IMG/VR virus record: IMGVR_UViG_3300027969_002350
Span: 1 to 64,000 of that record
DNA length: 64,000 bases
Origin: a virus
Strand: one strand, 5' to 3'
Shown here: positions 30,019 through 64,000 of the stretch, piece by piece
How positions within the stretch are numbered: position 1 is the stretch's first letter
Layout of the letters: each line of letters begins with the position of its first letter
Translations under genes and position numbers: made by a program
Notes under the pieces: model-generated
Database searches by the model: none
What the model was told of the DNA's origin: nothing
The model's input: the letters and a program-made list of their open reading frames with translations, nothing else

Positions 30019-30030
30019 ATTTTATCCTTT

Positions 30031-38530: not shown

Positions 38531-38854
38531 ATGGCTATTAGGAAAAAGGATAGAAGTTTTGAAGAAATCCTTAAAGATGTTGTCATGGAAGAAGTTCCTA
38601 TAGAATACATAACACACATTCAACTTAAACTTATAACCGGAGATGTTCTTGAATTTAATCAAGAAGAATTAGCAGGCTTAAAAGATGCCGGTGAAATTCT
38701 TAAAGCACAGGGCTTAGAGCACTTGCGTGATAATATTCAAGACATCGAGGTTTTTATTGACAGCAGTAAAATCAAGAATCGCGTCATAAAGTATGTACGT
38801 GGTATACTAACCAGCCAATTCGGCGAAGAGAATGACACTAAGAACAGAAATTAA
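38531..38854 (+). CDS. Hypothetical protein
   Basis: AAGGA RBS; 107 aa. Confidence 0.7.
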   Translation: MAIRKKDRSFEEILKDVVMEEVPIEYITHIQLKLITGDVLEFNQEELAGLKDAGEILKAQGLEHLRDNIQDIEVFIDSSKIKNRVIKYVRGILTSQFGEENDTKNRN

Positions 38855-39716
38855 TTTTGAAACAGATAAAAACTATCTTCCAGTATTGGATCATGGTTTT
38901 GTAGGTCTTGTTGACCATATGGGCAGTGATAACGCCATCGTTCAAGCCGCTCGTGTTAGTTATGGTGCTGGCACAAAACAAGTTCAAGATGACCGCAACT
39001 TAATCCGGTATCTAATGCGTCATGAACATACAACACCATTTGAAATGTGCGAAGTAAAGTTCCACATTAAACTTCCTATCTTTGTTATGCGACAACTTGT
39101 ACGGCATCGTACAGCCAGCATGAATGAATATAGTGCTCGCTATAGTGTGCTTACAGATGAGTTCTACATTCCAGAGTTTGAACAAATACAAAAGCAAAGC
39201 ACAACTAACAAGCAAGGCAGAGAAGAAAGTGCCTGGGGCTTTGATGAGAAGCGTAGCGTACAACATGCTTTCCAACGTAGCTTTCATAATGCATACAAAG
39301 AATATGCAAGTTTGCTGGGCAAGGAAGATTCTGGACTGGCACGTGAGCTTGCTAGGAGTGTGCTTCCAGTAGGCGGATATACAGAATTGTATTGGAAAGC
39401 CAACTTAAAGAACTTTCTGCACATGGCTCGCTTACGCATGGATCCACACGCTCAATGGGAGATCCGAGAGTTTGCAGGCGCTATGTATGACTTAGTTAAG
39501 CCATTATTTCCAGAGGCATGTACTGCATTTGAAGACTACGCTGTTAACTCAGTGAAGCTAAGTGCTGGAGAGTACGAGCTAGTTAAGAATTTAATTAGTC
39601 ATGCTAAATGGGCTTCGTTAGTCGAGCAATACGGCAATGACGAAAAAGCACTGGGCGCAGACGCAGGACTTGGTGTTCGTGAACTTAAAGAGTTTAAAGA
39701 TAAATTAGGTCTGTAA
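38832..39716 (+). CDS. thyX: Flavin-dependent thymidylate synthase
   Basis: AARVSY, HTTPFE and RHRTASMNEYSARY ThyX signature; HAQWEIR. Confidence 0.95.
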   Translation: MTLRTEINFETDKNYLPVLDHGFVGLVDHMGSDNAIVQAARVSYGAGTKQVQDDRNLIRYLMRHEHTTPFEMCEVKFHIKLPIFVMRQLVRHRTASMNEYSARYSVLTDEFYIPEFEQIQKQSTTNKQGREESAWGFDEKRSVQHAFQRSFHNAYKEYASLLGKEDSGLARELARSVLPVGGYTELYWKANLKNFLHMARLRMDPHAQWEIREFAGAMYDLVKPLFPEACTAFEDYAVNSVKLSAGEYELVKNLISHAKWASLVEQYGNDEKALGADAGLGVRELKEFKDKLGL

Positions 39717-40259
39717 AGGATCTACACTAAGTTCATTAATGTGAACTCCTGCAGGCTGCGAGATTATCCATTTGATATAATCAGCAGCCTGTTTTGTTGG
39801 CATTGTTTTCCTGTCAGGATGCTTGGTTTGATTATTAGATAAAGTACCAAAGCTAATCAATGTAACTTTGGGATTAGTTGCCCACACACCAGTCATACCC
39901 AAACTGTTAGCATAATCACGTAATGCTTTCTTTTCAGCATTATATAACCAATCTGTTGCTTTCATAACCCTATCAGTTGTACTACCAACACAAATTATTA
40001 AAGTTTGTTTGTTTTCTGTTTTAAGTTTTTTGTATACTGCTTCAAGTAACAATGTTTGATTGAACTTCCACAATGCACTATTAATAATGACTATATCGTA
40101 ATCAATACTCATATCAGCAAATACTTGTTGGTGTTCTGCTTTAGTTAGATCTAACTTATGAGTTGTTCTACTTACAAAAGTAAGGTCATGTCCTGTTAGC
40201 TCTGTGTTAAGAGCTTCTGCTAATCCATACGCTGGATTACCTGATATTAATATTTTCAT
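39705..40259 (-). CDS. Short SDR-like Rossmann oxidoreductase
   Basis: ILISGNPAYGLA, INSA, VGS, YNAEK (YxxxK). Confidence 0.7.
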   Translation of the reverse strand: MKILISGNPAYGLAEALNTELTGHDLTFVSRTTHKLDLTKAEHQQVFADMSIDYDIVIINSALWKFNQTLLLEAVYKKLKTENKQTLIICVGSTTDRVMKATDWLYNAEKKALRDYANSLGMTGVWATNPKVTLISFGTLSNNQTKHPDRKTMPTKQAADYIKWIISQPAGVHINELSVDPLQT

Positions 40260-40987
40260 AATTTATTTATTTCTTCCATATCGTAATATACGTTAACGTC
40301 TGTTTTTGGACAATGATCAAAAACAGAAATATCAATTTCAATGTTGTTACCTTGCATTATTTTTTTAATCAAATCAAATAATACAAAATTATTTTCGTCT
40401 GATAAATGATTTTGTAATCTATCTTCTCGTTCAAAATGCATACCTTTGTGCGGAATATTGTAAAATTCTCTTTCTAACTCGTTTACCATGCCTAAATTAA
40501 ATTCGTCAGCACAATTAATATACGGATTAGAATTTCTAGTTCTACTCTCAACCATACACGGTAGCATAATTAATTTAATATTATGTTCTGCACATACGTT
40601 TATAATTTTTTCAATTATAGCATCGTGAACAAATATATCAAACTCGTCAGTTTGAAGGTACTTATAATATTGTTCTGCTGCCTTAATATGTTTATAATAC
40701 ATCTTTGTTTCGATGTTTGGCATGCTTAATTGATGTTCAACTACAAACAAATTGCAAATGCACATATCTACAGGAACATCGGTATAAAGTCTTCCAGGCG
40801 CAGTAATTGTAAAAATAACAGTATCGTAATCTTGATAGTTTTTTATAAAATGTTGATATGCGTGGAACAAACTTGTGCCTGGTTCTGAGTGATTAATGGC
40901 ATTTCCAAATTCGTTGTGCAATAATGTTGTCCAACTAGTTGGACCATTGCTTCCTGAAAAACTATCTCCAAAAATCCCTATTTTCAT
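40256..40987 (-). CDS. SGNH-hydrolase-like protein
   Basis: IFGDSF block I, GTS block II, C-terminal NH. Confidence 0.55.
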   Translation of the reverse strand: MKIGIFGDSFSGSNGPTSWTTLLHNEFGNAINHSEPGTSLFHAYQHFIKNYQDYDTVIFTITAPGRLYTDVPVDMCICNLFVVEHQLSMPNIETKMYYKHIKAAEQYYKYLQTDEFDIFVHDAIIEKIINVCAEHNIKLIMLPCMVESRTRNSNPYINCADEFNLGMVNELEREFYNIPHKGMHFEREDRLQNHLSDENNFVLFDLIKKIMQGNNIEIDISVFDHCPKTDVNVYYDMEEINKL

Positions 40988-42297
40988 TTAAATAACCTTG
41001 TGTATTCTGGTGCAATATTTAATATGCTATGTCCACGTGCTTGATCCAAATACTTTGTAAACTTGACGAACTCGGGAAGTTTATCACTGTAGTCAGCACC
41101 TAACATGTATTTTGTAATACTGTTTAGTATGTTTTCTGCGTTCTTTGCAATGTCTTCTGGATACTCTGCTTTAAACTCAGCAATACATTTAGCATAGTAG
41201 TCGACAATTTCTTGTTTCATGTCTGCAGGTAAAACACGAACGTTAACACGTTTTGGTCCGTGTGCTACATGATGTGTAATAATAGGACGCTTCTTTGTGC
41301 TATTGATCTTAGTAAAGCCACTGCTGTCTAGCTTCCATTTCATAAAACGAGGAACGTGCCAAATATTGTATGCTGTTACTGTACAGGCCATCCAGGCCAT
41401 AATGTTTGGATTCTTTTCTGCATATTCGTCTAATTTCTGCAAGTTCTTGTATGCCTGTGTCCACTTTAAAGGCCAACGCTGATATTCAACTGTTTCGCCC
41501 ATGCCGTCCATACTGGCACCAACACGCACTTGTTTAAACTGTGTCCACATATCTAATACACGCTGTGGCAGGTTACTCATGTTAGTGTTATACTCAATGA
41601 TCATCTTCTTACTTTGACCAGCATCAATGCATTTTTGCAAAAACTCATAATGACGTTCAATCATCATTGGTTCTCCGCCGGCCATATAAACATGCTTGAT
41701 GTTTGGAATGTTAGCTTCTATCTGTGTCCAAAATGATTCACTGTTGTGCCAGTCATAGTCAGTAGTAGATAGTCTGCCACTATCATTGCGCTCTAATTTA
41801 ACTGTACCGTGCGTATCTTTGTATTCATCACTGCCATGATATTCAGTCCATTGTTCATACCAAGTGTGACTATCAGTAGGGCCGCACATACGGCAAGCAA
41901 GATTACATAAATTACCAAAACGCAAGTCGTAGTATTCTAAGTTTCTATTTTTAACCGAGCCATCTTCTTCTGTTATATAGCGAGCATCATCTATACTAAA
42001 CTTCCAGTTTTCTAATTCGTATTGTCTGCGACTGTTAAGTCCACTGGCCTCTTCTTGTTGGCATCGGCCACATTCTTGACTCCATTCTCCCACTAGCATA
42101 TTCTTGCGAACTTCTTTCATTAGTGTAGCATTACGAGCAGTTTCCATATTGTCTCTGCCAGCATTATATGGAGTGCCATCTTCGTGTCTAACTACACCTT
42201 GATTCTCAGTTACATTGGCTTGACAGCATATACGAATGTCGCCATTATTTCGAACAGCTTGGAAGTTCCATGGTATAGGACAAAATGTATTAGTCAT
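40984..42297 (-). CDS. Radical SAM protein with N-terminal twitch/SPASM-like region
   Basis: FCPIPW...ICC, CGRC, CNLACRMC, AGGEP. Confidence 0.9.
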   Translation of the reverse strand: MTNTFCPIPWNFQAVRNNGDIRICCQANVTENQGVVRHEDGTPYNAGRDNMETARNATLMKEVRKNMLVGEWSQECGRCQQEEASGLNSRRQYELENWKFSIDDARYITEEDGSVKNRNLEYYDLRFGNLCNLACRMCGPTDSHTWYEQWTEYHGSDEYKDTHGTVKLERNDSGRLSTTDYDWHNSESFWTQIEANIPNIKHVYMAGGEPMMIERHYEFLQKCIDAGQSKKMIIEYNTNMSNLPQRVLDMWTQFKQVRVGASMDGMGETVEYQRWPLKWTQAYKNLQKLDEYAEKNPNIMAWMACTVTAYNIWHVPRFMKWKLDSSGFTKINSTKKRPIITHHVAHGPKRVNVRVLPADMKQEIVDYYAKCIAEFKAEYPEDIAKNAENILNSITKYMLGADYSDKLPEFVKFTKYLDQARGHSILNIAPEYTRLFK

Positions 42298-43660
42298 TTA
42301 TTCTTCCCTTGTATTCTATTGTATCTACTATTCGTTTCCATAAATCAGGCAAGTTTCTTCTTAAGTCTTGTCCTCTTATTTTATCCAAGTCTGCTGTATA
42401 TTCAACAAAAAGTTTTAATTGTTCCTTATCGACTTCTTCTTTGGCATGTAATGCATTTACTACGTTAGTATAAATCCTATACAATCCTAGTTCGGCTAGC
42501 CATTTTTTGTCATGGTCAACATCACTGTTATTCATTTGTTCCAATAAAGTATCTCTGTGCGTTACTAACTTATGCACTAGTAACTTTTTTGCAGGATATA
42601 GTGTTGGGCTTAGATATTTTGGATCATATAAAATATTAATAATCATAGTAGTAAAATCTGAGCCGTAATATCTAACTAGTACATCCCACCATTCTTTATT
42701 AGATATTTCTTTTTGTAAAGCAAACCACCACTCTAACATTTTATGAAATGTCCATACATTAAAAATACTTAATACAGGAGCCCATTTAATGTATATACGT
42801 TCTGGATCATCTTTTTCTGTTATTAACCATTCTCTTACTGATGCTTCTACAATGTTCCATTCACTAGGAAATCGGATATAATCATTGACTGGGCCCACGC
42901 CATCGACGCTTAGATTAACAATAACTTTTTTAAATTGTTTAAGACGGCTTAATACTTTTTCTTTTGGTACCCAGCTTGCATTAGAAAAGATGTCTAGTAT
43001 GATTTGATCCTGTCGTCCTGTAGATATAATCATATCGATTGCTTCAATAAAATTAGGATGCAACATTGGTTCGCCTCCTGTAAATTTAATTTCTTCAACA
43101 TCCCTAAAGTCTTCGATGTCCCAGTTATTATCAACGTTAATAACTGTTTTATGAAATTTTCTATCCGAATAATACGACGCAAGTTTATTGTCGTCATCGT
43201 ACCATGTAGTACTTAAACTACCATTACAAGTCCTGCATTTTAAATTACAGTGATTACCAAACGCTAGTTCAATATATCTAATTTTATTTTTTTGATTAGG
43301 ATCAGCAAGTTGCTCTTGGTTGTTTTCATTCCACATCAAATTTGCTTTTTCTCGCATACTTTTATTTTTTCGACGAGCATTTTTAACTTCTGGTAGTGTA
43401 CTAGTTTCTTCTTGATAACATTTTCTACAGCCTGGAACTGGTTTGCCAGCAATAATAGTTTGTCTAATTTCTTCCCACTCGGGCGAGTTTAATGCCCCAG
43501 TAAAAGAAATATTATCAACATTGAACTTGTCAAATTTAAATTCGTTACCTTTAACTTTATAGTCAGGATGTTTAATATCAAAACGGCAGCAAGGTTTTAT
43601 TTCTCCTGCTGGTTTAGTTTGAAGATGTATCCATGGGAGAATACAAAAAACATTACTCAT
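42290..43660 (-). CDS. Radical SAM protein with N-terminal twitch/SPASM-like region
   Basis: FCILPW...PCC, CRKC, CNLKCRTC, TGGEP; start MSNVFC at 43660. Confidence 0.9.
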   Translation of the reverse strand: MSNVFCILPWIHLQTKPAGEIKPCCRFDIKHPDYKVKGNEFKFDKFNVDNISFTGALNSPEWEEIRQTIIAGKPVPGCRKCYQEETSTLPEVKNARRKNKSMREKANLMWNENNQEQLADPNQKNKIRYIELAFGNHCNLKCRTCNGSLSTTWYDDDNKLASYYSDRKFHKTVINVDNNWDIEDFRDVEEIKFTGGEPMLHPNFIEAIDMIISTGRQDQIILDIFSNASWVPKEKVLSRLKQFKKVIVNLSVDGVGPVNDYIRFPSEWNIVEASVREWLITEKDDPERIYIKWAPVLSIFNVWTFHKMLEWWFALQKEISNKEWWDVLVRYYGSDFTTMIINILYDPKYLSPTLYPAKKLLVHKLVTHRDTLLEQMNNSDVDHDKKWLAELGLYRIYTNVVNALHAKEEVDKEQLKLFVEYTADLDKIRGQDLRRNLPDLWKRIVDTIEYKGRIND

Positions 43661-44819
43661 AACTCTTATCTCCTGGAAACAAAGGTAACTTAGTGCCAGG
43701 AGCACGTTTTGGAATCTTACTATCTGCACTACTTACACAACTTGTCCCGCCACAAGGCATTGGCTTGTCATATAACTTAAATCCAGTTTCAATATGTCCT
43801 AAAGGAACTTCGCTACAACTATAACTACGTTTTACTGTGCCGTCTGGTTCGCGAATAATAATACTGCGAAATCCACTACTACACTCCCATTTATTAAAGT
43901 TATTAAAGTTAAAAGCATTAAAACGTTCTGCTTGATCCATAAACCAAGGCTTGCCTTCTTTATCAACAAACTCAATTTGATAGTGTGGATCAACATCGAC
44001 TTGTTTCTTACGCTGAGTATCTGCCTTGTCAATCATGAACGTAGGTTTCGGACGTTTCACTAATCCAGACTTTAATGCTTTTTCTTCTGTGTAAGCACGT
44101 TGTGGCATACCATTGTGTAACTTAGCCAACATCTCAGGTGTATAACCATCTACCACACGGCTTGCAGTAGGATCGCTTTGTGGCTTGAGTGTTACGTTGA
44201 TACCTCTATTGTGAAAGTATAAACTTAGATCATAAATCTCATTAAACTGTTCTGGCACCATAACCATATTAATAGTTATTTGTGTGTCATATTCTTGGCA
44301 TAAGACTAGTTTGTCAGCAAACTCTTCTACTTTCTTATCTGTGTCAACATGTTCACGATGGCAACTTGCTGTAATACTAGCACGATGAAAATTTTTAACT
44401 GCTGGCACATATTGTTCTTCAAACCATTTCATAGGACGACTCATGTTACTGGTCATATGCACACTGGTATAGTTTGTGTTAGCCGCATCATTATTTAAAT
44501 GATTAAGGATGTCAATGTAAGCTGGATGGAATGTGGGTTCTCCTCCACTTAGACTAAAGTGGAAACTATTAAATCCATTTTCTCTAGCTTGACGTTTTAT
44601 CTCATCTACAGTATGTAACATTAAAGGTGTAGGGCGATGGTCCTTTGTGTCACTGCGAGCATACGGCCAGCAATAACTACAACGATAGTTGCAGTATCGT
44701 CCTAATAGCCACGATACGGTAAACATATCGCGGTATAGCATTGTTCTTTGACCAACTCTAACTAAGTCGTTAAATGGAATCTTAGTAAAGTCATATTCAC
44801 TGGTTTTTAAATCACTCAT
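43653..44819 (-). CDS. Radical SAM protein with C-terminal Cys-rich region
   Basis: WLLGRYCNYRCSYC, SGGEPT, C-terminal WEC...SC...PC...SC. Confidence 0.9.
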   Translation of the reverse strand: MSDLKTSEYDFTKIPFNDLVRVGQRTMLYRDMFTVSWLLGRYCNYRCSYCWPYARSDTKDHRPTPLMLHTVDEIKRQARENGFNSFHFSLSGGEPTFHPAYIDILNHLNNDAANTNYTSVHMTSNMSRPMKWFEEQYVPAVKNFHRASITASCHREHVDTDKKVEEFADKLVLCQEYDTQITINMVMVPEQFNEIYDLSLYFHNRGINVTLKPQSDPTASRVVDGYTPEMLAKLHNGMPQRAYTEEKALKSGLVKRPKPTFMIDKADTQRKKQVDVDPHYQIEFVDKEGKPWFMDQAERFNAFNFNNFNKWECSSGFRSIIIREPDGTVKRSYSCSEVPLGHIETGFKLYDKPMPCGGTSCVSSADSKIPKRAPGTKLPLFPGDKSYE

Positions 44820-45045
44820 TTTTTTCGTAGATAAATTTTACTTCTTTGCCTGGTCCTGCTTCGCTGGGCAGGCCGCCATACTCTTTAATATACCAAGTAA
44901 TAGCAGCCTTGTACCATCCTGTGCTATCATGCCTACTTTCTTTATTAAACTTATATATGTTATCATTGGTTGCTTCCATGCTACTAATAATTCTAGCGGC
45001 TTCTAATTGTAACACTCTTAAGGGCATTGTGTCAAGGTCTATCAT
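44812..45045 (-). CDS. Hypothetical protein
   Basis: 77 aa, overlaps both neighbours. Confidence 0.65.
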   Translation of the reverse strand: MIDLDTMPLRVLQLEAARIISSMEATNDNIYKFNKESRHDSTGWYKAAITWYIKEYGGLPSEAGPGKEVKFIYEKNE

Positions 45046-46244
45046 AGGTCCAAATTATTCATTAGTTTAATTAATTTATCTGTTTTCTTAACAGCTTGTT
45101 TGCGCTCTAAAAATTCCTGTGCCAGTTGTTTATAGTTATCATTGTATGCTGTACCAATTCTAAATATCATATTATCAAGAAACGTGATAAAGTTTTCGGG
45201 GTCTACATGATTAGAATTGGCAATATTATCCAACACAACTTTTTTAGCCTGTTCCATGTATTTAAGATAATATATCGGAAGATTTGCAATATCCAATTCA
45301 GTGGGTACACTTATAAAATTTCCGTACCACGTAAATTTTTTATTTGGTGCGTGAGTTTTGAATTGTTCATATATCCAAGAAATATATTGTGAAAAACTTT
45401 TTAAGTTAAAAATATTAACAGTAGGACTTAGTACTATTAATTCTGTCTTAGGATGTGTTATGTATCTAACAAAGTTTTCTTGAAAACAAGTCCAATCTAA
45501 ACCGTGTCTTATAAGTTCAGCATCCTCTCCAAAACTTTCATTGCTAATGCCAATTCCCCATGACAAATTACTTGTGTCCATTTTAGCAACAATTTTATCC
45601 ATCAAGAATCGTTTACTATTGGCATTAGTACATATTTCTAATCTAATATTTTTACTGCTATTCTTTGAGCACTCATCAATAAAATCTACTAACTCATAAA
45701 AACGATTACTGGCAGTAGGCTCTCCACCTAAAAATATAAAAATTATCTTATTAGCATACAGTTCTTTATCGATATGATTTTTAATCCACTGCTTAAAAAC
45801 TGTATAATCATCCTCATTAGTATTATCTACTATTTCAATGCCTTCTTCTTGCGCTATCTTACTGCTACTACCAGACCAACAATATATGCAAGACATATCA
45901 CATATTCTATCAGGTCTAATTTCTATATAACTAATATAGCTATCACCCTCTAAGCTATTTCTTTTATCTTCAATAAAGTTATTATCCCATTTATTGGCCC
46001 ATTCTTTAAAGGCGCTATTACCTTTATTATAATCATTCCAACAGTTATTACAATCAATATGTTTAACATTTTTTAAACTTGCAATTCTTCTATCTGTTAT
46101 GTACTCATTTTTACTAATAAAATCTTCAGTTAGTTTGTCGGGAAACTGATGTGAAGCAGCCTTGCAACAATGGCTTACTGATCTTAATTCAAAATTAATA
46201 TTAATATCTGTCCAACTTTTAGAACAGTAAGTTTCGTTGCTCAT
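45042..46244 (-). CDS. Radical SAM protein with N-terminal twitch/SPASM-like region
   Basis: YCSKSW...HCC, CNNC, CDMSCIYC, LGGEP. Confidence 0.88.
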   Translation of the reverse strand: MSNETYCSKSWTDININFELRSVSHCCKAASHQFPDKLTEDFISKNEYITDRRIASLKNVKHIDCNNCWNDYNKGNSAFKEWANKWDNNFIEDKRNSLEGDSYISYIEIRPDRICDMSCIYCWSGSSSKIAQEEGIEIVDNTNEDDYTVFKQWIKNHIDKELYANKIIFIFLGGEPTASNRFYELVDFIDECSKNSSKNIRLEICTNANSKRFLMDKIVAKMDTSNLSWGIGISNESFGEDAELIRHGLDWTCFQENFVRYITHPKTELIVLSPTVNIFNLKSFSQYISWIYEQFKTHAPNKKFTWYGNFISVPTELDIANLPIYYLKYMEQAKKVVLDNIANSNHVDPENFITFLDNMIFRIGTAYNDNYKQLAQEFLERKQAVKKTDKLIKLMNNLDL

Positions 46245-46984
46245 ATACTAACTATCATAGTTTCTTGCTTTTGATTGATAGTAAAACTTTCTTCGCGTCC
46301 GCCACGTTTAAAATGCGTTTCCCCGTCTAAATATTCTTCTTTTACTGATACATTTTTACCTGCATATATATCAACAATTTTTTTATCTTTTGGTCCAATA
46401 CATATAGCTACTACCGCTTCAACTGGTTGTTGAGAAAAATCATCTCCAAATTCTTTTGCAAGTAACCGAACAAATTGTTTATTGGATAATACATCTTCCA
46501 TACCGCAGGCAACAAATGCCGTGCCATAACCAAGATCCTCAGCAGTTAACTGTGCGTATGTGGCGCTAATCATTGCGTCACGTACAGCACCTTTGACCAT
46601 AACATATTTAGATACAGGACTTTTAACTTCGCTGTATACTCTGTCATATACTTCTGTTCCTTTACTTTCTACAAGATCAACCATTTGATGCTCTGGAGCA
46701 GGGTTTGTTATATAAAGTAATACCAACGGGGCTTTAGTTTGTAGCAGATATATTTCTTTACCAAGTTCGTCATTACACGATGTAATATTATCACATAGTT
46801 CTGACTTTAATCTTTTACCGGCTGCAGAGTCTGTCAACGCAAACACTTTGTATCCATATATTTTGTTTTTACTTGGTGCACGACGGGCACTATCCAAAAT
46901 AGTTTGAACATCGTCTTCGTTGATTTCGTCGGTCATTAACCTAGTAGTAAATCTAGATTTAATTAATTCATTCACTGTTGACAT
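46241..46984 (-). CDS. Nitroreductase-family flavoprotein
   Basis: LIKSRFTTR, ARRAPSKN, APLVL, AEDLGYGT; AAGGAG RBS. Confidence 0.8.
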   Translation of the reverse strand: MSTVNELIKSRFTTRLMTDEINEDDVQTILDSARRAPSKNKIYGYKVFALTDSAAGKRLKSELCDNITSCNDELGKEIYLLQTKAPLVLLYITNPAPEHQMVDLVESKGTEVYDRVYSEVKSPVSKYVMVKGAVRDAMISATYAQLTAEDLGYGTAFVACGMEDVLSNKQFVRLLAKEFGDDFSQQPVEAVVAICIGPKDKKIVDIYAGKNVSVKEEYLDGETHFKRGGREESFTINQKQETMIVSI

Positions 46985-47012
46985 TTTCTCTCCTTAAATT
47001 ATTATATACGCA

Positions 47013-47026
47013 GATAAATATTTATA
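47013..47026. promoter_or_regulatory. Overlapping divergent late promoters
   Basis: GATAAATA on + (47013-47020) overlaps TATAAATA on - (47019-47026) in the 62-bp divergent gap. Confidence 0.6.
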
Positions 47027-47046
47027 GATAATAACCGGAGAATAGC

Positions 47047-57272: not shown

Positions 57273-57321
57273 ACTAGTATTTAATCAACAAAGCCGGATA
57301 GACCTGTTGATTAAGAAATTA

Positions 57322-57639
57322 TTAATCTTTTCCTTGTTGCTGTACTTTACGGACAAAAGGATGTTTCGGAGAGTCGGTGCCACAGGTATCTAGACAAGTC
57401 GAAAATGGTTCGTCTGTATCAAAAGAGTCTTTTAATTTATCGTATGCTTTGATAATATCTTCTTTAGCATTAGTAATAAAAATTCTTTTATAGTCCTCCC
57501 CTAAAAACTTTTCTAAGGCATTGTGGCGTCTCTTTGTACTTACTAACCAGCAACAAGGTGCAACTAAGCCAGTAAACTCAATAAAAACACCCGGATGTTT
57601 AACGCAAAACGGATTTACTTTTTTGTTGGTTGAATTCAT
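57322..57639 (-). CDS. Stand-alone SPASM/twitch domain
   Basis: PFC...FIEFTGLVAPCCW...CLDTC. Confidence 0.7.
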   Translation of the reverse strand: MNSTNKKVNPFCVKHPGVFIEFTGLVAPCCWLVSTKRRHNALEKFLGEDYKRIFITNAKEDIIKAYDKLKDSFDTDEPFSTCLDTCGTDSPKHPFVRKVQQQGKD

Positions 57640-58270
57640 TTTCTATTTCCTCAAATGGGCGACTAGGTGCTAACCAATCATTTCCTCCCGGTACAACAAC
57701 TAATGCATGTTGTAATTCAAAACCTATTCCTAATTCAATACTTTTTTCATAAGCATCCATGATCGTATTTTCATTAAATGAAAATACGATATGTTTCCAT
57801 TTAATTCTAGCTTTTTTAACTTTTGTATTATTGACTTTGACACATGATTTAATAGCGGTTTCAACATCTTCCCATTCTGAATTAACTCGATATTGCATAT
57901 AGTTTTCCGGACTGCCGTCTATACTAAAGAACAACAAATCATGTTCATTAAATTCAGCCATTAACCTTTCCCACCACTCTGCAGATTTGCCTGAGCCGTT
58001 GGTATGTGTTATAATTTGACAAGTAGGATGTGCTTGTTTAACTGAGCGCACTAGTCCAATAAAATCTTTACTGTATATTGGATCTCCCCAATTACCGCAA
58101 AACGTAATAACTTCTGGATTGCAGCCAAGCAAGAATTCTTTGAAATATTCAATATCCATATCAAACATATTGTGAATATACTTGTTATGCGGTGTTGTTC
58201 TTGTACATTCTAAACAAAGCAATCTACATCGGTTTGTTAATCCAACATGTAAGCATGTAAAATCAATCAT
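57599..58270 (-). CDS. Radical SAM core lacking the C-terminal SPASM
   Basis: CRLLCLEC, CGNWGDP, HTNGS, FSIDG, YRVN; only 223 aa. Confidence 0.85.
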   Translation of the reverse strand: MIDFTCLHVGLTNRCRLLCLECTRTTPHNKYIHNMFDMDIEYFKEFLLGCNPEVITFCGNWGDPIYSKDFIGLVRSVKQAHPTCQIITHTNGSGKSAEWWERLMAEFNEHDLLFFSIDGSPENYMQYRVNSEWEDVETAIKSCVKVNNTKVKKARIKWKHIVFSFNENTIMDAYEKSIELGIGFELQHALVVVPGGNDWLAPSRPFEEIENEFNQQKSKSVLR

Positions 58271-58279
58271 ATAATTTCC

Positions 58280-59347
58280 TTATATTAAAGTATAGTTACC
58301 TATCGGTAATACTTCTAGTTTTTTCACATTGCATACTTCAGTGCAACGATGAATACGATCAATTTTATTTATACCGTGTTCTTTTGATTGCCAACTACTA
58401 ACTAAGTTGTCTGTGTAAAATTCGTGTGCTAGTATTTCTTCAACAGAATATTTAGTCAGGTCGTTCCAGTCATTACTGCCATACGATTCAAATAATCGTT
58501 GTTGTAAAATTTCTGCTCGGCCACGATCCATGTTCATAAACCCATTGTGTAAAAAACAGCAGGGCCATAGCTTACTATCAAAACCAATGAAATACATTTT
58601 CTTTGTTTGATTATTACATTGTATTTCATTATCTACTGAATCTTTAAATGCTTCATTAACTGAGTCGATGGTACTTTTATAATCTTTGCGCTTTATATTA
58701 TCTACTTTAATTTTTTGAATTAATTGTAAACCTAGACTAGTTGCCACGCTTCTATCATGTCTGCTCATAAACTCTTTAAACTGCATCTTAACACTTAATG
58801 CTTTTGCATCCATAATCTGATGCTCATTCCAAGGGAATATTAAATATTGCCAGCCTGCATTGCCTCCTGCGCCAATAAAAGCATTTGCATTTTCTATAAT
58901 CTTAGACCATGTAGTATTTTGTCTGTATATATGATTAGTATCTTCCATGCCATCAATACTAAATTTAACCATATGTCTGTCATGCTTCTTTAGCACTTGA
59001 GCTAATTTAGTCCAGTATTTTACACTACGTAAGCTGGCATTTGTATGAATTATAATATTGTATTTGCCCACAGTACTTGCAAAATCTAAGAAATCTAAAA
59101 ATTCAGGATGCATTAAAGGATCGTCGATTGTTCCACAAAACTCTAACTCGATGACTGATTTAAATTCTGGTGCTAGTAAAATCTTTTTGAATGTTTCAAA
59201 TTTAATATATTCTTTATCAGGAATAACATATTTCTTTTCATTGAACGAATTACCGTCTGTTCTAACACAGCCCAGACATAGTGCATTGCACATGCTACTA
59301 AGTTCGAATTGTAGCTTGGTGGCCGCGGATAGATATGTATTATTCAT
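58280..59347 (-). CDS. Radical SAM protein with C-terminal SPASM/twitch
   Basis: CNALCLGC, CGTIDDP, C-terminal IQC...WPCC...CTEVC. Confidence 0.9.
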   Translation of the reverse strand: MNNTYLSAATKLQFELSSMCNALCLGCVRTDGNSFNEKKYVIPDKEYIKFETFKKILLAPEFKSVIELEFCGTIDDPLMHPEFLDFLDFASTVGKYNIIIHTNASLRSVKYWTKLAQVLKKHDRHMVKFSIDGMEDTNHIYRQNTTWSKIIENANAFIGAGGNAGWQYLIFPWNEHQIMDAKALSVKMQFKEFMSRHDRSVATSLGLQLIQKIKVDNIKRKDYKSTIDSVNEAFKDSVDNEIQCNNQTKKMYFIGFDSKLWPCCFLHNGFMNMDRGRAEILQQRLFESYGSNDWNDLTKYSVEEILAHEFYTDNLVSSWQSKEHGINKIDRIHRCTEVCNVKKLEVLPIGNYTLI

Positions 59348-60311
59348 AATTAAGTTCTTTTGGTATTAACACATCAGCAGTACACATGCACCAATCTTCT
59401 TTACATTTTACTGACTGTGTTAGCAGGCCACTAAAATTAAAAATACTAGTAAATGGTTTTAATTGTGCTGTTCTGCATGTTGCCATATATATAGAACCAG
59501 TATCATCTACATATATATGATCCATGCCCATATTACAGTCCCATCCTTTAAATTTATTTGTTCTATTGTTAACGGCTTCTACTTCGTCAAATCTAGAAAC
59601 AACATCAAATTCGTCTTTAATAAAAGTATTACCATAATAGTTATGAATAGGTGCAGGTTTAATTGCTCCACGAATGTTCAATCCTGTATTTGCAGATAAC
59701 CAACTTAATTGTTCGGTATTATATTCATAACTAATAGATAGTCCACTTTGATTGTTGTTTCTTTGAAATACCCTACTAGGTTCTAACGTTATGTTAGGCA
59801 TATCTTTAAGTCTTTCAAATGCATCTACACTTTTTTCCCAGTAAGGAGAAACTGGATACATTAAAGTAACTATGCCGATATTAGTTTGTGTGCCAATGAA
59901 TCTAATTTTTTCAAATATTTCTTCATCTGCACTTTCTGGGTGATAGCTAATTGTAACTTTATAAATTTTAGGGGCATATTCCCTCCACCATTCTATGCTT
60001 CTACTTCCGTTTGTATTAACATATACACACCAACCAGCTTCATTACAAAAATCAATAATTGTTTCTAAACTGGGACTAATAGTAGGTTCACCACCATTTA
60101 CAAATACATGTACGCTTCTTCCGATAACTTCTTTTTGTATGTTGGTAAGAAATTTTTTAATTATTACAGGATCTTCTTGTTTACTTTTAAAAACATTTGT
60201 ACCTGTGTGGAGGGATGGCGGACAATAGCTACAATGATACGTGCAAAGAGTATTCAATGTCCAATCAATAATAAATCGATTTGTCTCATTGTAAATTTTA
60301 ATAGTTTTCAT
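59340..60311 (-). CDS. Radical SAM protein with C-terminal Cys-rich region
   Basis: WTLNTLCTYHCSYC, NGGEPT, GWDC...TC...KC...CMC. Confidence 0.9.
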   Translation of the reverse strand: MKTIKIYNETNRFIIDWTLNTLCTYHCSYCPPSLHTGTNVFKSKQEDPVIIKKFLTNIQKEVIGRSVHVFVNGGEPTISPSLETIIDFCNEAGWCVYVNTNGSRSIEWWREYAPKIYKVTISYHPESADEEIFEKIRFIGTQTNIGIVTLMYPVSPYWEKSVDAFERLKDMPNITLEPSRVFQRNNNQSGLSISYEYNTEQLSWLSANTGLNIRGAIKPAPIHNYYGNTFIKDEFDVVSRFDEVEAVNNRTNKFKGWDCNMGMDHIYVDDTGSIYMATCRTAQLKPFTSIFNFSGLLTQSVKCKEDWCMCTADVLIPKELNYE

Positions 60312-61480
60312 TTAAATTGTTCTTTAAAGGCATCGTATTTAGTACCACATGTCTTGGCACAAACTGCTAACTTACCTTCTGCACAACTGGGCTTAGTCCA
60401 CGATCCTGGAACAACTTCTTGGATGAATTTGCCGTTGATAACATCATTTAAATCGTGTACACGCAGATCTAAACTGTCAAGGCCTGCACTATCAATAGCA
60501 TCCCAAATTTGGCCGCCGCGTTCTTTCCAATACCAAACATACATCTGCCCAGCTGTCCAACAACATGGCTGTAGATATCCTTCTGCTGTAATGTAAATGC
60601 TTTTTTCTTCAGCAACTTTACATTTAACTTCAACAGAGTCCCAGTACTTTTCCATGTCTTTTTTCTTATCAAGATCTAAATTAAATTTCTGGCTACCTAT
60701 TTTACCTTCAAGTTCTGCTACAGTTGAAATAAAATCAATTTTAACTTCACCTTTGTCTTTACTTAAACTTTCTAATTGCTTTAATGCGGCATTTTGATAT
60801 TCGGGATTCTTAGGCATACTTAACAACGTAGTTTCGTTGCCTTTACGATTTCCTGCTTGATGTTCTGCTTTAACTGCACCTCTAGTATTGCTAAAGAACC
60901 TATTGGACTTTTTGACATTAAACTTTTCAAAGCCCATGCTAGTTGCTAATGCTCTAGCTTCTTCAACTTGATGTTCGTTATGTCCAAATACAATATAGTC
61001 CCAACGAGCTCTACCGCCGGCGGCTATAAAGGCTTCTGCATTACGCATAATGTTTTTCCATACCGTGCCTTGTCGATACAAGTGATTAGTATCTTCTAAG
61101 CCGTCTACACTGAATACAACATAATGACTTTTACCCATAGCGGCAGGCAACTTACTCCACCATTCAGGAGTTTTAGCACTGGCATTTGTGTGAAAGCTCA
61201 ATTGCATTTTAGCATTGTGGCTGCGAATATATTCAAATATCTCTAATGTATCTCTGGCACTAATTGGGTCACCATAGTTGCCGCACATATACAATCGTTT
61301 TAATTGTTTGATGAATTTAGGTTTTAGTATTGTTTTAACATCATCTAAGCTAAGTTCAGCGTCATGTAATTGTGGATTAACTTCGCCGCCATTGATGTTT
61401 CTAGCACATTGAGGACAACTAGCATTACAGCGTTCTGTAACTTCTAAGTGAACTGTGGCGATTTCATTAGCTTTATACAT
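60308..61480 (-). CDS. Radical SAM protein with C-terminal SPASM/twitch
   Basis: CNASCPQC, CGNYGDP, VKC...QPCCW...CAKTC. Confidence 0.9.
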   Translation of the reverse strand: MYKANEIATVHLEVTERCNASCPQCARNINGGEVNPQLHDAELSLDDVKTILKPKFIKQLKRLYMCGNYGDPISARDTLEIFEYIRSHNAKMQLSFHTNASAKTPEWWSKLPAAMGKSHYVVFSVDGLEDTNHLYRQGTVWKNIMRNAEAFIAAGGRARWDYIVFGHNEHQVEEARALATSMGFEKFNVKKSNRFFSNTRGAVKAEHQAGNRKGNETTLLSMPKNPEYQNAALKQLESLSKDKGEVKIDFISTVAELEGKIGSQKFNLDLDKKKDMEKYWDSVEVKCKVAEEKSIYITAEGYLQPCCWTAGQMYVWYWKERGGQIWDAIDSAGLDSLDLRVHDLNDVINGKFIQEVVPGSWTKPSCAEGKLAVCAKTCGTKYDAFKEQFK

Positions 61481-62331
61481 TATTTGATACCATAGATCAT
61501 AAATCTTTTATATTTGGGAAAAGCTGTTTCTCCCCTAAAATGAACTATATTTAATGGGTATTTTTTTAAAAAAACTCCAAAATTTTCACAATAGTTTATA
61601 TGGTCGTATTCGGGACTACTATTTGATTGTATTAAAACTGTAGTACCTGGTTTTAACTTTTCAAACCAAACATTACTCATATGCTCTGCACTTGTGTTAA
61701 TAATTAAATCAGGATTTAAAATACTATTATTAAAAATAATATTGTTATTTGCATCAAACGCTTCTTCCATAGTTCTGTTATCAACTTGTGCATTTGAATT
61801 TATAATTTTAACTAATGGATTAATACTACTGTCTGGATCTATACTGTATAGATTGGAATATGTAATATCTTTTAAAAATAAACTATGATGTGTAAGCCAG
61901 CCGCCAATTAACAATACATTATCAAAATTTAATTTAAATTTATTTAATGTTTCTGCCATCCAAAGTTTACTTAGGATTTGACTTTTACTAAAGACCGTTG
62001 CAATTATATCATTATTTAACAATGTAATATTGTGCAATTTTTTCAACACTACATCATTGGGCCATATAGAAGTCATAATATAGATTAATTCACTGGTAAC
62101 TAGTTTATCTTCAGCGCATATGTTAGTATAAAAATTTAAACGTTCGTTTCTGTTTAAGTTTGAATACAATTCATAATCGCTAGCAATCAAATCTTTTAAC
62201 GGCCATGTTTTTAATTTAGGCTCAGAATATTTCATATTAATAATATGACGTATAAAGTTTTTCTTTTCTGGTTCATTAATAAAGTTAAAAAACTTTTCAA
62301 TTCCAAAAAGCCAAGAGAGTTGATCATCCAT
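61480..62331 (-). CDS. Class I SAM-dependent methyltransferase-like protein
   Basis: VLLIGGW, SIDPD, DLIINTSAEH Rossmann-like motifs. Confidence 0.55.
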   Translation of the reverse strand: MDDQLSWLFGIEKFFNFINEPEKKNFIRHIINMKYSEPKLKTWPLKDLIASDYELYSNLNRNERLNFYTNICAEDKLVTSELIYIMTSIWPNDVVLKKLHNITLLNNDIIATVFSKSQILSKLWMAETLNKFKLNFDNVLLIGGWLTHHSLFLKDITYSNLYSIDPDSSINPLVKIINSNAQVDNRTMEEAFDANNNIIFNNSILNPDLIINTSAEHMSNVWFEKLKPGTTVLIQSNSSPEYDHINYCENFGVFLKKYPLNIVHFRGETAFPKYKRFMIYGIK

Positions 62332-63004
62332 TTAAACCCGTCCATTCTGTAAATTTACCACGTAGCCATTTAAAATTATTTACTAAAGTAAAATCTGCAT
62401 TTTCTTCTTTAGTGTATGCAACACCTTGTCTTGCACCTTGTATAGCAAAGTATCCATACTGCGTTTCTATACCTGCTTCGCACCACATAGTTAACCGTTC
62501 TTGACTTTCTTGATCATTATTATTTTTATTAATACCAGCACTAAGTTTAACTGCTTCACGAAATGCTGTTCTCCACGTACTGTATGGATTATAATTAAAC
62601 CTATGCTCTGTGGCTAGTATGTTTAACTTAATATAACTATCAGCAAGTGTAGTAGTCATATCAGGTCGGTCTAAGCGTTCTGCACTAAAACAATCCTTAC
62701 TAAATAATTTAATACCACCGTGTCCATATATTAAACCATTAATGGGATTTTTACTGCGAAATACCGCGACACTCTTTGGCGTTAGTTCTATTTGTTTATC
62801 AAATGTAAAACTATCTACTATCCACGAGTCAGCATCTACTACATAGAATCTATCGCCTTCACAGAGACCGGCTATGTGTTTATGACTTTCAAATATATTC
62901 CCTACTGCGGCAACTGCTTGAGCATTGTCAGTTTTAGATTGCAGTCGTTCCCAATTATCATTGAGATTGCTTTCATCAGAATATAAAAAATAAACAGGTA
63001 ACAT
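62324..63004 (-). CDS. GT-A glycosyltransferase-like protein
   Basis: FYVVDAD (DxD), NPINGLIYGHGGIKL, WRTAFREAVKL; paralog of the next gene. Confidence 0.55.
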   Translation of the reverse strand: MLPVYFLYSDESNLNDNWERLQSKTDNAQAVAAVGNIFESHKHIAGLCEGDRFYVVDADSWIVDSFTFDKQIELTPKSVAVFRSKNPINGLIYGHGGIKLFSKDCFSAERLDRPDMTTTLADSYIKLNILATEHRFNYNPYSTWRTAFREAVKLSAGINKNNNDQESQERLTMWCEAGIETQYGYFAIQGARQGVAYTKEENADFTLVNNFKWLRGKFTEWTGLNG

Positions 63005-63005
63005 T

Positions 63006-63998
63006 TTAATATTTAGGTAACTCGAAACCAAATAATGGTAATGCGCTTTGATTTAATAATGCAGGCCATCCTAGTCCCTTGCCAGGACTAATATGTACAT
63101 GTTTGAACCATATGCTTTGATTTGAATCAAGTTCTACTAATGGTAATCCTAATTGTGCTTTTAAATCCGTCATTAATTTATGACTGCGTTCATTAATATA
63201 CTCACCTTGTTTTAATTGTAATATTTGATTATCCCATAACTTATTAAACCAGTCATAGTCTGAAATTACAGTATGATCAAAGTAGTCCAGATATAGCATG
63301 TGGGCCGCTAACCGAGCACCATATATAACCCAATCTCCGTTTTCTACATCGCGTCCCACTGTCATCCAAATTAACCAACGTGCAAAGTTAGCTGGGTACA
63401 TTTTATGTTTAAAATCCTTAGGAGATACTTTATGTCCTTGATCGAGGCCCATTTTAACACCTTCACGAAAGCCCGCTCTAAATGCTTGTTTAGGAGTTGC
63501 ATTATTATAAACAACGCCATAAGTATTGTTCATTTGTTTGTACTGATCTGCATCCCAGCAAAAATCAACATTATGAGTACTATCGCCTTTTGCTGCCGCT
63601 TCGTGGCTTTTCATATTTTTAACATGTTCAGAATACCATAATTTAATTCCGCCATTACCATAGACTAAGCCATTGACGATATTACGACTACTCCAACTTA
63701 GTGTAGCAAATTTGATATCAGAAGTAATCTCGATACTTTTTTTCCATATTTCACTATCTACAAAACAATCAGCATCTACTGTAAAAAATCTATCAGTGCC
63801 TGCGGTTTCTGCAGCCGCTTTGTGTGCCGCATCAAAGCCTTTGACTCCGTGTACCCTGTACACTAATTCCGGATTAGGATGATTGTTTTTTAAATGATTA
63901 TAATTATCATCTGCATTAGGCTCATCAAAACTTAAAAACACAACAGGTGGTGTTTTTAATTGTATTATTTGATTTTTTTTATTTAATCCGCTATCAAA
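63006..63998 (-). CDS. GT-A glycosyltransferase-like protein; 5'-partial
   Basis: FLSFDE, FFTVDAD, NGLVYGNGGIKL, FRAGFREGVKM; frame stays open to the window edge. Confidence 0.55.
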   Translation of the reverse strand, partial: FDSGLNKKNQIIQLKTPPVVFLSFDEPNADDNYNHLKNNHPNPELVYRVHGVKGFDAAHKAAAETAGTDRFFTVDADCFVDSEIWKKSIEITSDIKFATLSWSSRNIVNGLVYGNGGIKLWYSEHVKNMKSHEAAAKGDSTHNVDFCWDADQYKQMNNTYGVVYNNATPKQAFRAGFREGVKMGLDQGHKVSPKDFKHKMYPANFARWLIWMTVGRDVENGDWVIYGARLAAHMLYLDYFDHTVISDYDWFNKLWDNQILQLKQGEYINERSHKLMTDLKAQLGLPLVELDSNQSIWFKHVHISPGKGLGWPALLNQSALPLFGFELPKY

Positions 63999-64000
63999 AG

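Follow-up and report, generated by a model that had tools for sequence, protein, structure and literature searches.

A radical SAM-rich island beside the fibre genes of a jumbo-phage contig, a candidate pathway for an unusual sugar-bearing product

The first 64,000 nucleotides of the virus record IMGVR_UViG_3300027969_002350, here called the window, carry from position 39,705 onward a dense island of radical S-adenosylmethionine (SAM) genes and other biosynthetic genes; the whole record has 90,493 bp and makes up about 25% of a genome by the CheckV estimate. This island runs past the window to about position 80,571 of the contig and comprises about 44 genes in about 41 kb, 13 of them coding for radical SAM enzymes, and the gene order on the contig is a giant virion protein, a fibre-like gene, the island and then genes of nucleotide metabolism. 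We propose, with confidence evenly poised between acceptance and doubt, that the island is a phage-encoded and wholly cytoplasmic pathway for an unusual sugar-bearing product that is edited by radical chemistry, a virion component being its likeliest acceptor. Genes are referred to below by their coordinates or by the first coordinate alone, and those of the features are compiled in Table 1.

An earlier note on this DNA had counted 12 radical SAM genes between 39,705 and 64,000 and two more at 28.7-31.4 kb, and both counts are borne out. PF04055 is matched by 10 of the 24 large open reading frames (ORFs) in this range at E<=0.01, with 8 above the 29.5-bit cut-off, two more (57599-58270 and 58280-59347) match phrog_21308 "radical SAM", and all 12 possess the CxxxCxxC motif, so that the number is correct. 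The outlying pair belongs to NCBIfam NF033640 (N_Twi_rSAM, twitch domain-containing radical SAM protein), whose curated cut-off is 170 bits. This cut-off is also passed by 5 of the 12 genes in the range (40984, 42290, 49282, 51302 and 55872) and, farther along the contig, by 75186, giving eight members over it and a ninth (45042) just under it, while the remaining six genes in the range are not members. The phrog_21308 type is represented by four (52555-53700, 57599-58270, 58280-59347 and 60308-61480). An alignment of the nine N-terminal-twitch (N-twitch) paralogues has invariant C9, C90 and C93 ahead of C146, C150 and C153; the Cys-rich auxiliary domain is located N-terminal to the CxxxCxxC core, and in three proteins Pfam SPASM precedes Radical_SAM. 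No equivalog model of NCBIfam came near its own cut-off for the island radical SAM enzymes, and PDB profile matches of the N-twitch enzymes (8vpo, viperins, BlsE and SkfB) span the common core only. A tblastn search of 43653-44819 against phage records gave no match, and no assayed member of NF033640 was found among the literature matches listed.

Throughout 39705-64000 the ORFs, 25 in total with 24 large, abut or overlap by a few bases as the note had described, and they fall into three units: one on the minus strand from 46984 to 39705, one on the plus strand from 47047 to 51345, and one on the minus strand that enters from beyond the window and runs down to 51302. The note had also seen no structural, replication or transport genes here, in agreement with Pfam, PHROGs and NCBIfam scans, which returned none of these families in the range. 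Moreover, among 50 proteins encoded by the island and by the genes on its fibre side, 49 lack any membrane-like segment and the last has a marginal one, Pfam and NCBIfam returned no flippase, polymerase, ligase or Gtr-type family among the island proteins, and loose Pfam scans of 23 ORFs of no known family gave matches at chance level only. Past the window the island continues with two further members of a glycosyltransferase-A (GT-A)-like family, a NodU-type carbamoyltransferase (182 and 120 bits), a class II aldolase/GatZ-like protein, a fused sugar-1-phosphate nucleotidyltransferase and APH-type kinase, shikimate-dehydrogenase-like, SnoaL-like and cupin proteins, a DUF6071 protein (72527-73462) and the thirteenth radical SAM gene (75186-76586). 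The flanking DNA, which the note had suggested inspecting for fibre or capsid genes, does contain them: the strand goes on past the island with genes for a Gly-Tyr-run protein, a tail-fibre-like protein and a phrog_11259 protein, and then for a 2385-amino acid (aa) virion structural protein (phrog_10938). At the other border stands ThyX (38832-39716, plus strand; Pfam), followed by small genes of no known family, a MoxR/VWA pair and an exonuclease. The island is co-oriented with the fibre genes and not with the replication module.

Four proteins without annotation (62324, 63006, 63994 and 76588) are paralogues by phmmer, and their family gave no Pfam, NCBIfam or meaningful PDB sequence-profile match. 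An AF2 model of 63994-64731, built from 25 homologues with a pLDDT of 90, was matched by Foldseek at probability 1.0 to WrtF (7.5e-5), to the chlorovirus PBCV-1 capsid glycosyltransferase 2p6w (A64R; 2.1e-4) and to SunS (4.1e-4), and VIA placed it at Z 11.0 with B4GALNT1 (root-mean-square deviation (rmsd) 2.7 over 136 residues) in a list spanning Z 10-11. The sequence VVDxD (V55, V56, D57 and D59), which includes the DxD motif, is invariant in the 25 GT-A-like sequences, and from such fold matches the GT-A-like proteins are putatively assigned to sugar transfer. The model of 61480-62331 has a helical N-domain and resembles PsoF (Foldseek 2.4e-6) and NodS (1.1e-5, TMt 0.67, rmsd 3.5); its alignment keeps G144, W145, D165 and D167 with no clear GxGxG, and its family returned neither a Pfam methyltransferase match nor a meaningful PDB profile match. 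The methyltransferase-like protein and the two GT-A-like proteins that had been read from the window are accordingly supported at the level of fold by AF2, Foldseek and VIA.

The record comes from a lineage of jumbo phages by its family-B DNA polymerase (7506-10151), whose closest matches are found in Sinorhizobium phage Phosso (49% identity), Agrobacterium phage Atu_ph07 (46%), a 349-kb Vibrio phage (45%) and the Rak2-like group (42-43%). A megablast of the island DNA against 50,697 phage records gave zero matches. Relatives of the most conserved island gene, the N-twitch gene 55872-57272 that served as anchor, number 5088 at E<=0.001, the best 120 clusters all being at least 70% identical, and in IMG/VR 183 stretches encode a relative. 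The following counts of phage loci refer to the best 80 of these 183 stretches, 10 kb on either side of the anchor, at blastp E<=1e-10 and at least 50% coverage, where cross-matches between paralogues inflate those for radical SAM genes. The gene 60308-61480 occurs in all 80 (median identity 60%), GT-A-like genes in 72 and 43653-44819 in 40 (median 70%), and many other island genes in 0-10. Six loci shown in full each have 8-13 ORFs with CxxxCxxC within 21 kb, in differing arrangements, and the whole records of four relatives contain 14, 10, 9 and 5 NF033640 genes over the cut-off. The most informative relative is G001, a 342-kb genome estimated as 92% complete, in which the DNA polymerase is only 52% identical and the genes run in the order found on our contig: giant virion protein, phrog_11259 homologue, an island of about 58 kb that wraps the contig ends, small genes, MoxR/VWA pair, exonuclease, QueE, FolE and DNA polymerase. 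PF00303 is absent in G000 (the present contig), G002, G003 and G004 and occurs once in G001 (C1:32124-32975; 342 bits) at the same border, being most simply ThyA; ThyX here and the ThyA-family gene there are a non-orthologous swap of thymidylate synthases.

The anchor gene is not confined to phage records. A scan of prokaryotes with one genome per species found 70 loci at 42-72% identity, and 55 of them are labelled Bdellovibrionota, including contigs of chromosome scale (2.2-3.0 Mb) and a Bdellovibrio strain in culture. The other 15 bear assorted labels and lie mostly on contigs of 2.9-47 kb (four are on contigs of 80 kb to 1.3 Mb, and four have the 77-aa gene described below), and many of them may be mis-binned phage DNA. 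Shared across the 70 loci are 60308-61480 (in 53), 43653-44819 (52), 40984-42297 (31) and the methyltransferase-like gene (31), with the GT-A-like genes, queried as three paralogues, in 15, 12 and 5. A scan of 119 proteins encoded around the module in 15 Bdellovibrionota loci showed GT2 glycosyltransferases near it in 5 loci, together with GNAT, QueC-like, SIS, amine-oxidase and methyltransferase proteins, and in the cultured Bdellovibrio strain a 1355-aa protein with a Peptidase_S74 fibre-chaperone domain adjoins it. A 140-kb contig with a Bdellovibrionales metagenome-assembled genome label (L143) has, at 11391-21300, counterparts of 80626, 80218 and 79329 arranged as in the phages and next to core genes; it may stem from a phage and have been binned with bacterial DNA, or the region may be prophage-like. 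Within the 50,697 cultured-phage records the GT-A-like family is found only in Ralstonia phage RsoM2USA (MG752970.1), where ORF347-355 hold seven island homologues after a fibre-like gene in the same order, including 80218, 79329, 76588, 75186, 63994 and 61480; identities are 46% for GT-A-like 76588, 40% for N-twitch 75186, 38% for GT-A-like 63994 and 31% for the methyltransferase-like 61480. According to the accessible text of its description, the products of ORF356, ORF359 and ORF361 beside this mini-island were assigned by mass spectrometry to protein bands of purified virions (PMC8504454). Taken as a whole, the island has a fixed core, made up of the GT-A-like and methyltransferase-like genes, the N-twitch gene 55872-57272 and the radical SAM genes 60308-61480 and 43653-44819, and the rest is swapped between relatives.

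One small gene is a new detail of this island type. The 77-aa ORF at 44812-45045 is found by tblastn at full length in 37 loci with 47-96% identity, always beside radical SAM genes; 12 residues are invariant and the mean column identity of 70% is even along its length. In 27 of the 37 loci the gene immediately downstream of it encodes a radical SAM enzyme (the 60308 class in 23, the 43653 class in 4), and the gene before it is mostly the methyltransferase-like one (22 of 37). The protein matched no family in Pfam or PDB, and Pfam found no RRE or PqqD domain. A profile search located the gene in 33 of the 80 phage loci and in 0 of the 55 Bdellovibrionota-labelled loci.

That the island is dedicated to biosynthesis and tailoring, and combines enzymes of sugar transfer with methyl, acyl-type and redox enzymes, is upheld by this survey, which also joins it to the structural module. 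That the product is sugar-based is suggested by the GT-A fold with its DxD motif, the nucleotidyltransferase-kinase, the carbamoyltransferase, the NodS-like fold and the GT2 neighbours in bacteria, and the radical SAM enzymes would be its editors. In the proposed pathway the accessory genes past the window (nucleotidyltransferase-kinase, aldolase-like, shikimate-dehydrogenase-like and cupin) would supply an activated sugar, which the phage-specific GT-A-fold family in its four copies would transfer. The methyltransferase-fold protein, the NodU-type carbamoyltransferase, the Fe(II)/2-oxoglutarate (Fe/2OG) oxygenase or oxygenases, the nitroreductase-type flavoenzyme and the SGNH-like proteins may then decorate the product. 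Finally, the thirteen radical SAM enzymes would abstract hydrogen at unactivated C-H positions, leading to epimerisation, oxidation, deoxygenation or C-C/C-methyl chemistry, and the N-twitch members (nine in the contig) would take part in this radical step. Because the island keeps a fixed place right behind the fibre genes, the virion fibre or another virion protein is taken as the likeliest acceptor.

Several points weigh against this proposal. The virion acceptor, likeliest but unproven, has gene position as its only basis, and in the Bdellovibrionota the modules are flanked by housekeeping genes; a jackhmmer search found an S74-domain protein within 10 kb in only 3 of the 70 loci, so that a general linkage to fibres in bacteria is not supported. 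The TM-scores of the GT-A-like Foldseek matches are just 0.3-0.45, those to WrtF, A64R and SunS being 0.33-0.44, and the nucleotidyltransferases MobA and IspD, which share the GT-A fold, reach Z 10.0-10.5 in the same VIA list; as these score almost equally, sugar transfer is a putative role. Functionally known SPASM/twitch radical SAM enzymes often act on peptides, and the best PDB match of the N-twitch profile, in the core only, is the RiPP cyclopropyl synthase 8vpo (RiPP, ribosomally synthesised and post-translationally modified peptide). Since the contig is only about a quarter complete, genes elsewhere could alter the picture. TAAATA boxes, which the earlier note had read as late promoters, also occur upstream of FolE (19045), 26295 and 10284 and are not specific to structural genes. 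Lastly, the authors who described a comparable region in pelagimyophages and cyanomyophages, the "host recognition cluster" (HRC; Zaragoza-Solas et al., 2020), favour modification of the host O-chain, in the text accessible to us (PMC7029224).

Applied to the present island, that view would have its sugars enter the lipopolysaccharide (LPS) O-chain or capsule of the host, altering receptors and blocking superinfection, which we consider unlikely. The HRC paper builds its interpretation, in the same accessible portion, on glycosyltransferases and LPS-type sugar genes (PMC7029224); here, UDP-glucose dehydrogenase-like and cytidylyltransferase-like genes lie elsewhere in the window, at 17610-19000, and soluble enzymes could feed new sugar nucleotides to the export machinery of the host. 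However, the classical O-antigen form of this idea is weakened by the near absence of membrane-like segments (none in 49 of 50 proteins) and of any flippase, polymerase, ligase or Gtr family, no Wzx/Wzy-type family was seen among the 119 neighbours of the 15 Bdellovibrionota loci (one PMT_2 was), and an outlay of 41 kb by a lytic-type T4-like phage would better suit a virion component. We consider it a little less likely still that the system is RiPP-like, with the radical SAM enzymes cross-linking, epimerising or otherwise modifying a ribosomal peptide or structural protein, the GT-A-like proteins glycosylating it in the manner of glycocin S-glycosyltransferases and the 77-aa protein serving as substrate or presenting partner. 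Many known SPASM/twitch enzymes are indeed peptide maturases (NCBIfam side matches; PDB 8vpo and SkfB), the peptide S-glycosyltransferases SunS and ThuS are among the best GT-A fold matches, the 77-aa ORF precedes a radical SAM gene in 27 of its 37 loci, and the fibre-side neighbour 80626-81663 has a (GY)9...(YG)7 run. Against it, the 77-aa protein is evenly conserved with no split into leader and core, and its gene is missing from the 55 Bdellovibrionota-labelled loci, all of which retain the enzymes, and, as far as compared, from the RsoM2USA mini-island; Pfam gives no RRE or PqqD, the GY run is unique to the contig, and the sugar-nucleotide and carbamoyl enzymes would be left unexplained.

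Modification of nucleic acid or nucleotides, either as DNA base hypermodification, in which phage glycosyltransferases and radical SAM enzymes are known to take part, or as a modified nucleotide, appears very unlikely, even though the island adjoins nucleotide-metabolism genes (ThyX), 7-deazaguanine-type genes (GTP cyclohydrolase I and QueE-like) are present at 19-23.5 kb, the N-twitch core is similar to viperins and BlsE, whose substrates are nucleotides or nucleosides, and 2 of the 15 Bdellovibrionota loci have QueC-like genes next to the module. The border gene ThyX is an ordinary thymidylate synthase instead of a hydroxymethylase, which weakens the DNA reading, and PF00303 is absent from the 90-kb contig (about 25% complete); searches of the island returned neither a base-exchange enzyme nor a DNA-binding family, and the island shares its orientation with the fibre genes rather than with the replication module. 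The note had preferred a coat on the virion to DNA precursor supply, and no hydroxymethylase that would point to DNA was found, ThyX being the bordering gene; a DNA-modification system suggested by the PHROG match of the adjacent gene to "thymidylate synthase" was rejected, Pfam showing ThyX. Fainter still is the prospect of a free secondary metabolite, a cyclitol-like or aminoglycoside-like small molecule released from or used in the infected cell. The shikimate-dehydrogenase-like, aldolase-like and SnoaL-like proteins, the carbamoyltransferase and the twitch radical SAM enzymes do recall aminoglycoside and cyclitol pathways such as that of BtrN, and a similar gene trio in a cultured cyanomyovirus is called "antibiotic synthesis genes" in the part of that paper available to us (PMC12801897). 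Yet there is no exporter, resistance gene or membrane protein, the place behind the fibre genes is fixed across distant relatives, and the cassette-like turnover would be more typical of surface structures.

A bolder extension of the pathway for a virion-borne, sugar-bearing product is one that we regard as somewhat unlikely, though less so than any of these rivals: the islands would constitute an undescribed glycan-editing machine common to jumbo phages and predatory Bdellovibrionota, in which GT-A-like proteins place sugars on a fibre or adhesin and N-twitch arrays rewrite single C-H positions of the glycan once attached. Swapping of cassettes would then generate a combinatorial surface code that tunes the recognition of host or prey or shields the fibre, and the 77-aa protein might be an electron or substrate carrier for the non-twitch radical SAM enzymes. 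If this machine exists, it would perform new reactions on carbohydrate. More generally, if the proposed pathway is right, tailed phages with genomes of about 350 kb devote over 10% of them to radical chemistry on a sugar structure, which would constitute a new class of post-assembly carbohydrate modifications and give the large radical SAM family NF033640 its first function, and the hypervariable fibre-side region of abundant aquatic phages would contribute to host recognition or protection through encoded chemistry as well as through proteins.

The timing of expression had been read by the earlier note as late, from TAAATA boxes in place of sigma70 promoters. The boxes at 47019-47026 and 57278-57283 are real, the latter a bare TAAATA that directly follows a hairpin and ends 5 nt before an ATG, but a sigma70-like site agreeing at 11 of 12 positions occupies 46978-47005 (plus strand) in the same intergenic region as the former. 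With this near-consensus site and the boxes before FolE, 26295 and 10284, late timing does not follow from the promoters; sigma70-like sites overall are at chance (102 vs 98.7 +/- 10.1). The longer form TATAAATA is present in 6 copies in the window vs 10.9 expected, with no enrichment. On the contig, four of its eight copies lie in intergenic gaps, 8-40 nt before a start codon, and those at 47019-47026 and 80600-80607 head island operons, the first being on the minus strand 35 nt before the start at 46984. G001 has five copies in the 102 kb that were examined, and only two of these stand just before a start. TAAATA boxes, often followed by a TATAAT-like element, also occur upstream of the fibre-side genes. 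Within the gaps 37602-37652, 46985-47046 and 80572-80625, TATAAATA is followed after 7-11 nt by TATATAAT, just before the ribosome-binding site. The gene for gp23 (PF07068), found in 4 of 4 relatives, has no TATAAATA or TAAATA in the 150 nt upstream of its start, and the two gp23 loci with a visible stop have a short intergenic gap. Late expression is plausible from the co-orientation with the fibre genes.

The other tailoring enzymes listed by the note fared unevenly. Its nitroreductase (46241-46984) is confirmed by PF00881 over the cut-off, and its short-chain dehydrogenase/reductase (SDR; 39705-40259) retains a weak and partial NF038213 match that falls far short of the family cut-off. Of the two Fe/2OG oxygenases, 47047-47787 stands by PF05118, whereas 53613-54434 has the HxD...H pattern and no family: Pfam and PDB gave no match, and Atlas places it in virus-only clusters, one with DUF6445 in 14% of members. 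The three SGNH-like proteins are retained by a sub-threshold DUF6071 match, a paralogue pair and a GDS motif; none has a match above cut-off and 40256-40987 is without a family, its comparison with the DUF6071-positive 72527-73462 giving a BLASTP E of 0.03. The oxygenase gene 47047-47787 overlaps 47660-49285, whose start is probably near 47780, and a 688-aa Atlas cluster with PF05118 (score 0.84) suggests, as a lead only, that the oxygenase and this virus-only protein are fused in other phages.

Table 1. Coordinates and supporting evidence of the features of the island and its satellites (positions on the contig, which up to 64,000 are those of the window).
Feature	Coordinates	Strand	Evidence or remark
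N-terminal-twitch radical SAM, outlier	28702-30018	-	NF033640 218 bits; CxxxCxxC
N-terminal-twitch radical SAM, outlier	30031-31503	-	NF033640 243 bits, residues 51-472
Short SDR-like protein, 184 aa, last gene of left operon	39705-40259	-	NF038213 E 2.7e-7, 30 bits vs cut-off 300; adh_short E 0.17
Possible SGNH-type hydrolase/acyl-esterase (weak)	40256-40987	-	N-terminal FGDSFSG; no family match
N-terminal-twitch radical SAM, semi-conserved	40984-42297	-	NF033640 383 bits
N-terminal-twitch radical SAM	42290-43729	-	NF033640 286 bits; SPASM 29-105 ahead of Radical_SAM 157-289
Core radical SAM, not N-twitch type	43653-44819	-	PF04055 52.7 bits
Conserved 77-aa protein overlapping both neighbour genes	44812-45045	-	tblastn conservation
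N-twitch-like radical SAM	45042-46244	-	NF033640 153 bits, just under cut-off; PF04055 26.5 bits
Nitroreductase-family flavoenzyme, first gene of left operon	46241-46984	-	PF00881 29 bits, cut-off 23.5
Divergent intergenic region, near-palindromic ATAAATATTTAT	46985-47046	.	TATAAATA on minus strand, GATAAATA on plus strand
Asp/Asn beta-hydroxylase-type Fe/2OG oxygenase	47047-47787	+	PF05118 35.8 bits, cut-off 22.6
Virus-only protein, about 500 aa	47660-49285	+	No family match; Atlas entry begins at residue 41
N-terminal-twitch radical SAM with extra N-terminal domain	49282-51345	+	NF033640 251 bits, residues 231-670
N-terminal-twitch radical SAM, last gene of long right operon	51302-52558	-	NF033640 324.5 bits; SPASM 9-71, Radical_SAM 123-288
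phrog_21308-class radical SAM	52555-53700	-	PF04055 39.9 bits; phrog_21308 1.3e-23
Possible second Fe/2OG oxygenase	53613-54434	-	Invariant H113, D115, H249 (HxD...H), 8-sequence alignment
DUF6071-like (SGNH-type?) protein	54427-55182	-	PF19547 E 0.0026, 17.9 bits vs cut-off 27
Paralogue of 54427-55182	55175-55879	-	phmmer 7.2e-55
Anchor N-terminal-twitch radical SAM, most conserved island gene	55872-57272	-	NF033640 431 bits
Split radical SAM: 223-aa core 57599-58270 and 105-aa Cys-rich ORF 57322-57639	57322-58270	-	phrog_21308 8e-18 (core)
phrog_21308-class radical SAM	58280-59347	-	phrog_21308 1.7e-21; CxxxCxxC
Small radical SAM, nearest STM4011/viperin/QueE models	59340-60311	-	PF04055 35.1 bits; NF038073 53 bits, sub-cut-off
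Core radical SAM, phrog_21308 type	60308-61480	-	PF04055 40.5 bits
Class I methyltransferase-fold protein, conserved core	61480-62331	-	AF2 model pLDDT 92.5
GT-A-fold family member	62324-63031	-	phmmer 1.1e-35 to 63994-64731
GT-A-fold family member, gene continues to 64016	63006-64000	-	phmmer 1.3e-21 to 63994-64731; 3.6e-79 to 76588-77559
Thirteenth radical SAM, N-twitch, beyond window	75186-76586		NF033640 above cut-off

Some features of individual genes deserve mention. The two ORFs of the split radical SAM gene (57322-58270) overlap by 41 nt in different frames, and as the split is kept at 50-60% identity in four other phage loci (L004, L014, L010 and L009), it represents either a genuine pair of genes or a frameshift that has been conserved, and does not reflect decay. 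The extra N-terminal domain of 49282-51345, about 230 aa long, has no family match. The true start of the outlying N-twitch gene 30031-31503 is probably downstream of the copy of TATAAATA at 31377-31384 (minus strand), which falls within the ORF as listed. A PhyH-type dioxygenase (26901-27596, plus strand) is encoded about 1.1 kb away from the pair 28702-31503, with two short minus-strand ORFs between, and this gene and the two outlying N-twitch genes may form a small satellite of the island. At 80626-81663 (minus strand), between the island and the fibre-like gene, a protein with a GGGG(YG)9...(YG)7 run is encoded; it was considered as a cross-linking substrate and rejected, the run being unique to the contig and absent in the homologues of G001 and L143 and in all other ORFs of the fetched loci.

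The left 39 kb of the window are devoted to replication and nucleotide metabolism, with DNA polymerase, exonuclease, GTP cyclohydrolase I, a QueE-like protein, the MoxR/VWA pair and ThyX. The plus-strand cluster at 16172-23536 encodes cytidylyltransferase-like and UDP-glucose dehydrogenase-like proteins, GTP cyclohydrolase I, a HIT protein and a QueE-like radical SAM enzyme, and probably supplies 7-deazaguanine and sugar nucleotides apart from the island. At 33922-36597 (plus strand) a MoxR-type AAA ATPase is followed by a DUF2201 metallopeptidase/VWA protein, a pair that G001 also keeps beside its island; the PHROGs label "HNH endonuclease" for the second protein was discarded, Pfam giving it no support.

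How far the island resembles systems already described can be considered at the level of the region, of the enzymes and of virion glycosylation. The earlier note knew of no characterised pathway of this type, which stands for the chemistry, no assay having been found in literature searches, and does not stand for the type of region, which is in print as the HRC, a cluster of glycosyltransferases and sugar genes with swappable radical SAM cassettes by the accessible text (PMC7029224). As far as that portion goes, the HRC is likewise a large non-syntenic island of T4-type phages that lies by giant structural and tail-fibre genes and varies between close relatives. The present island shows the same traits, having a border of fibre or giant genes in the contig, G001 and RsoM2USA and including some genes kept in 72-80 of 80 loci and others in 0-10. 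They differ in that the HRC, as described there, is placed between VrlC and the neck gene gp14 in phages of about 150-200 kb, whereas the far side of our island is ThyX (ThyA in G001) and its phage is a jumbo phage nearest to Phosso and Atu_ph07; the available text of the HRC paper has no analysis of radical SAM families. A "moraphage" (PMC12619734) was considered as a match and set aside, being of a different lineage and making no mention of radical SAM. Supplements aside, the literature gave no paper that analyses radical SAM arrays, assays an NF033640 member or identifies a product.

Regarding the enzymes, the island agrees with NF033640 in that eight contig proteins are over the cut-off and one just under it, with a Cys-rich domain ahead of the core; NF033640 is a catalogue entry with no solved close homologue, and arrays of 5-14 copies in one phage genome go unmentioned in its description as far as seen. 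BtrN, BlsE, viperin, SkfB and anSME belong to the same superfamily, possess an auxiliary-cluster domain and are the weak best matches, but the auxiliary domain of the island enzymes is N-terminal and not C-terminal, and their scores are far below the equivalog cut-offs. With respect to virion glycosylation, Freeman and co-workers reportedly described in 2023 mycobacteriophage capsid and tail-tube glycans, a case of virus-encoded glycosylation of the virion. Soluble GT-A glycosyltransferases beside structural genes are the likeness between such systems (mycobacteriophage; PBCV-1 A64R, 2p6w) and the island, for which glycosylation of the virion is a proposal. To our knowledge, the mycobacteriophage and PBCV-1 systems employ few glycosyltransferases and no radical SAM enzymes. 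The RsoM2USA mini-island differs in having one radical SAM gene in the block vs 13, and all of its genes are annotated "hypothetical"; the part of the RsoM2USA paper that was available does not mention radical SAM (PMC8504454). As the core is common to predatory bacteria and to one cultured phage, the question is open to experiment. The island is real and widespread, and is not unique to this contig.

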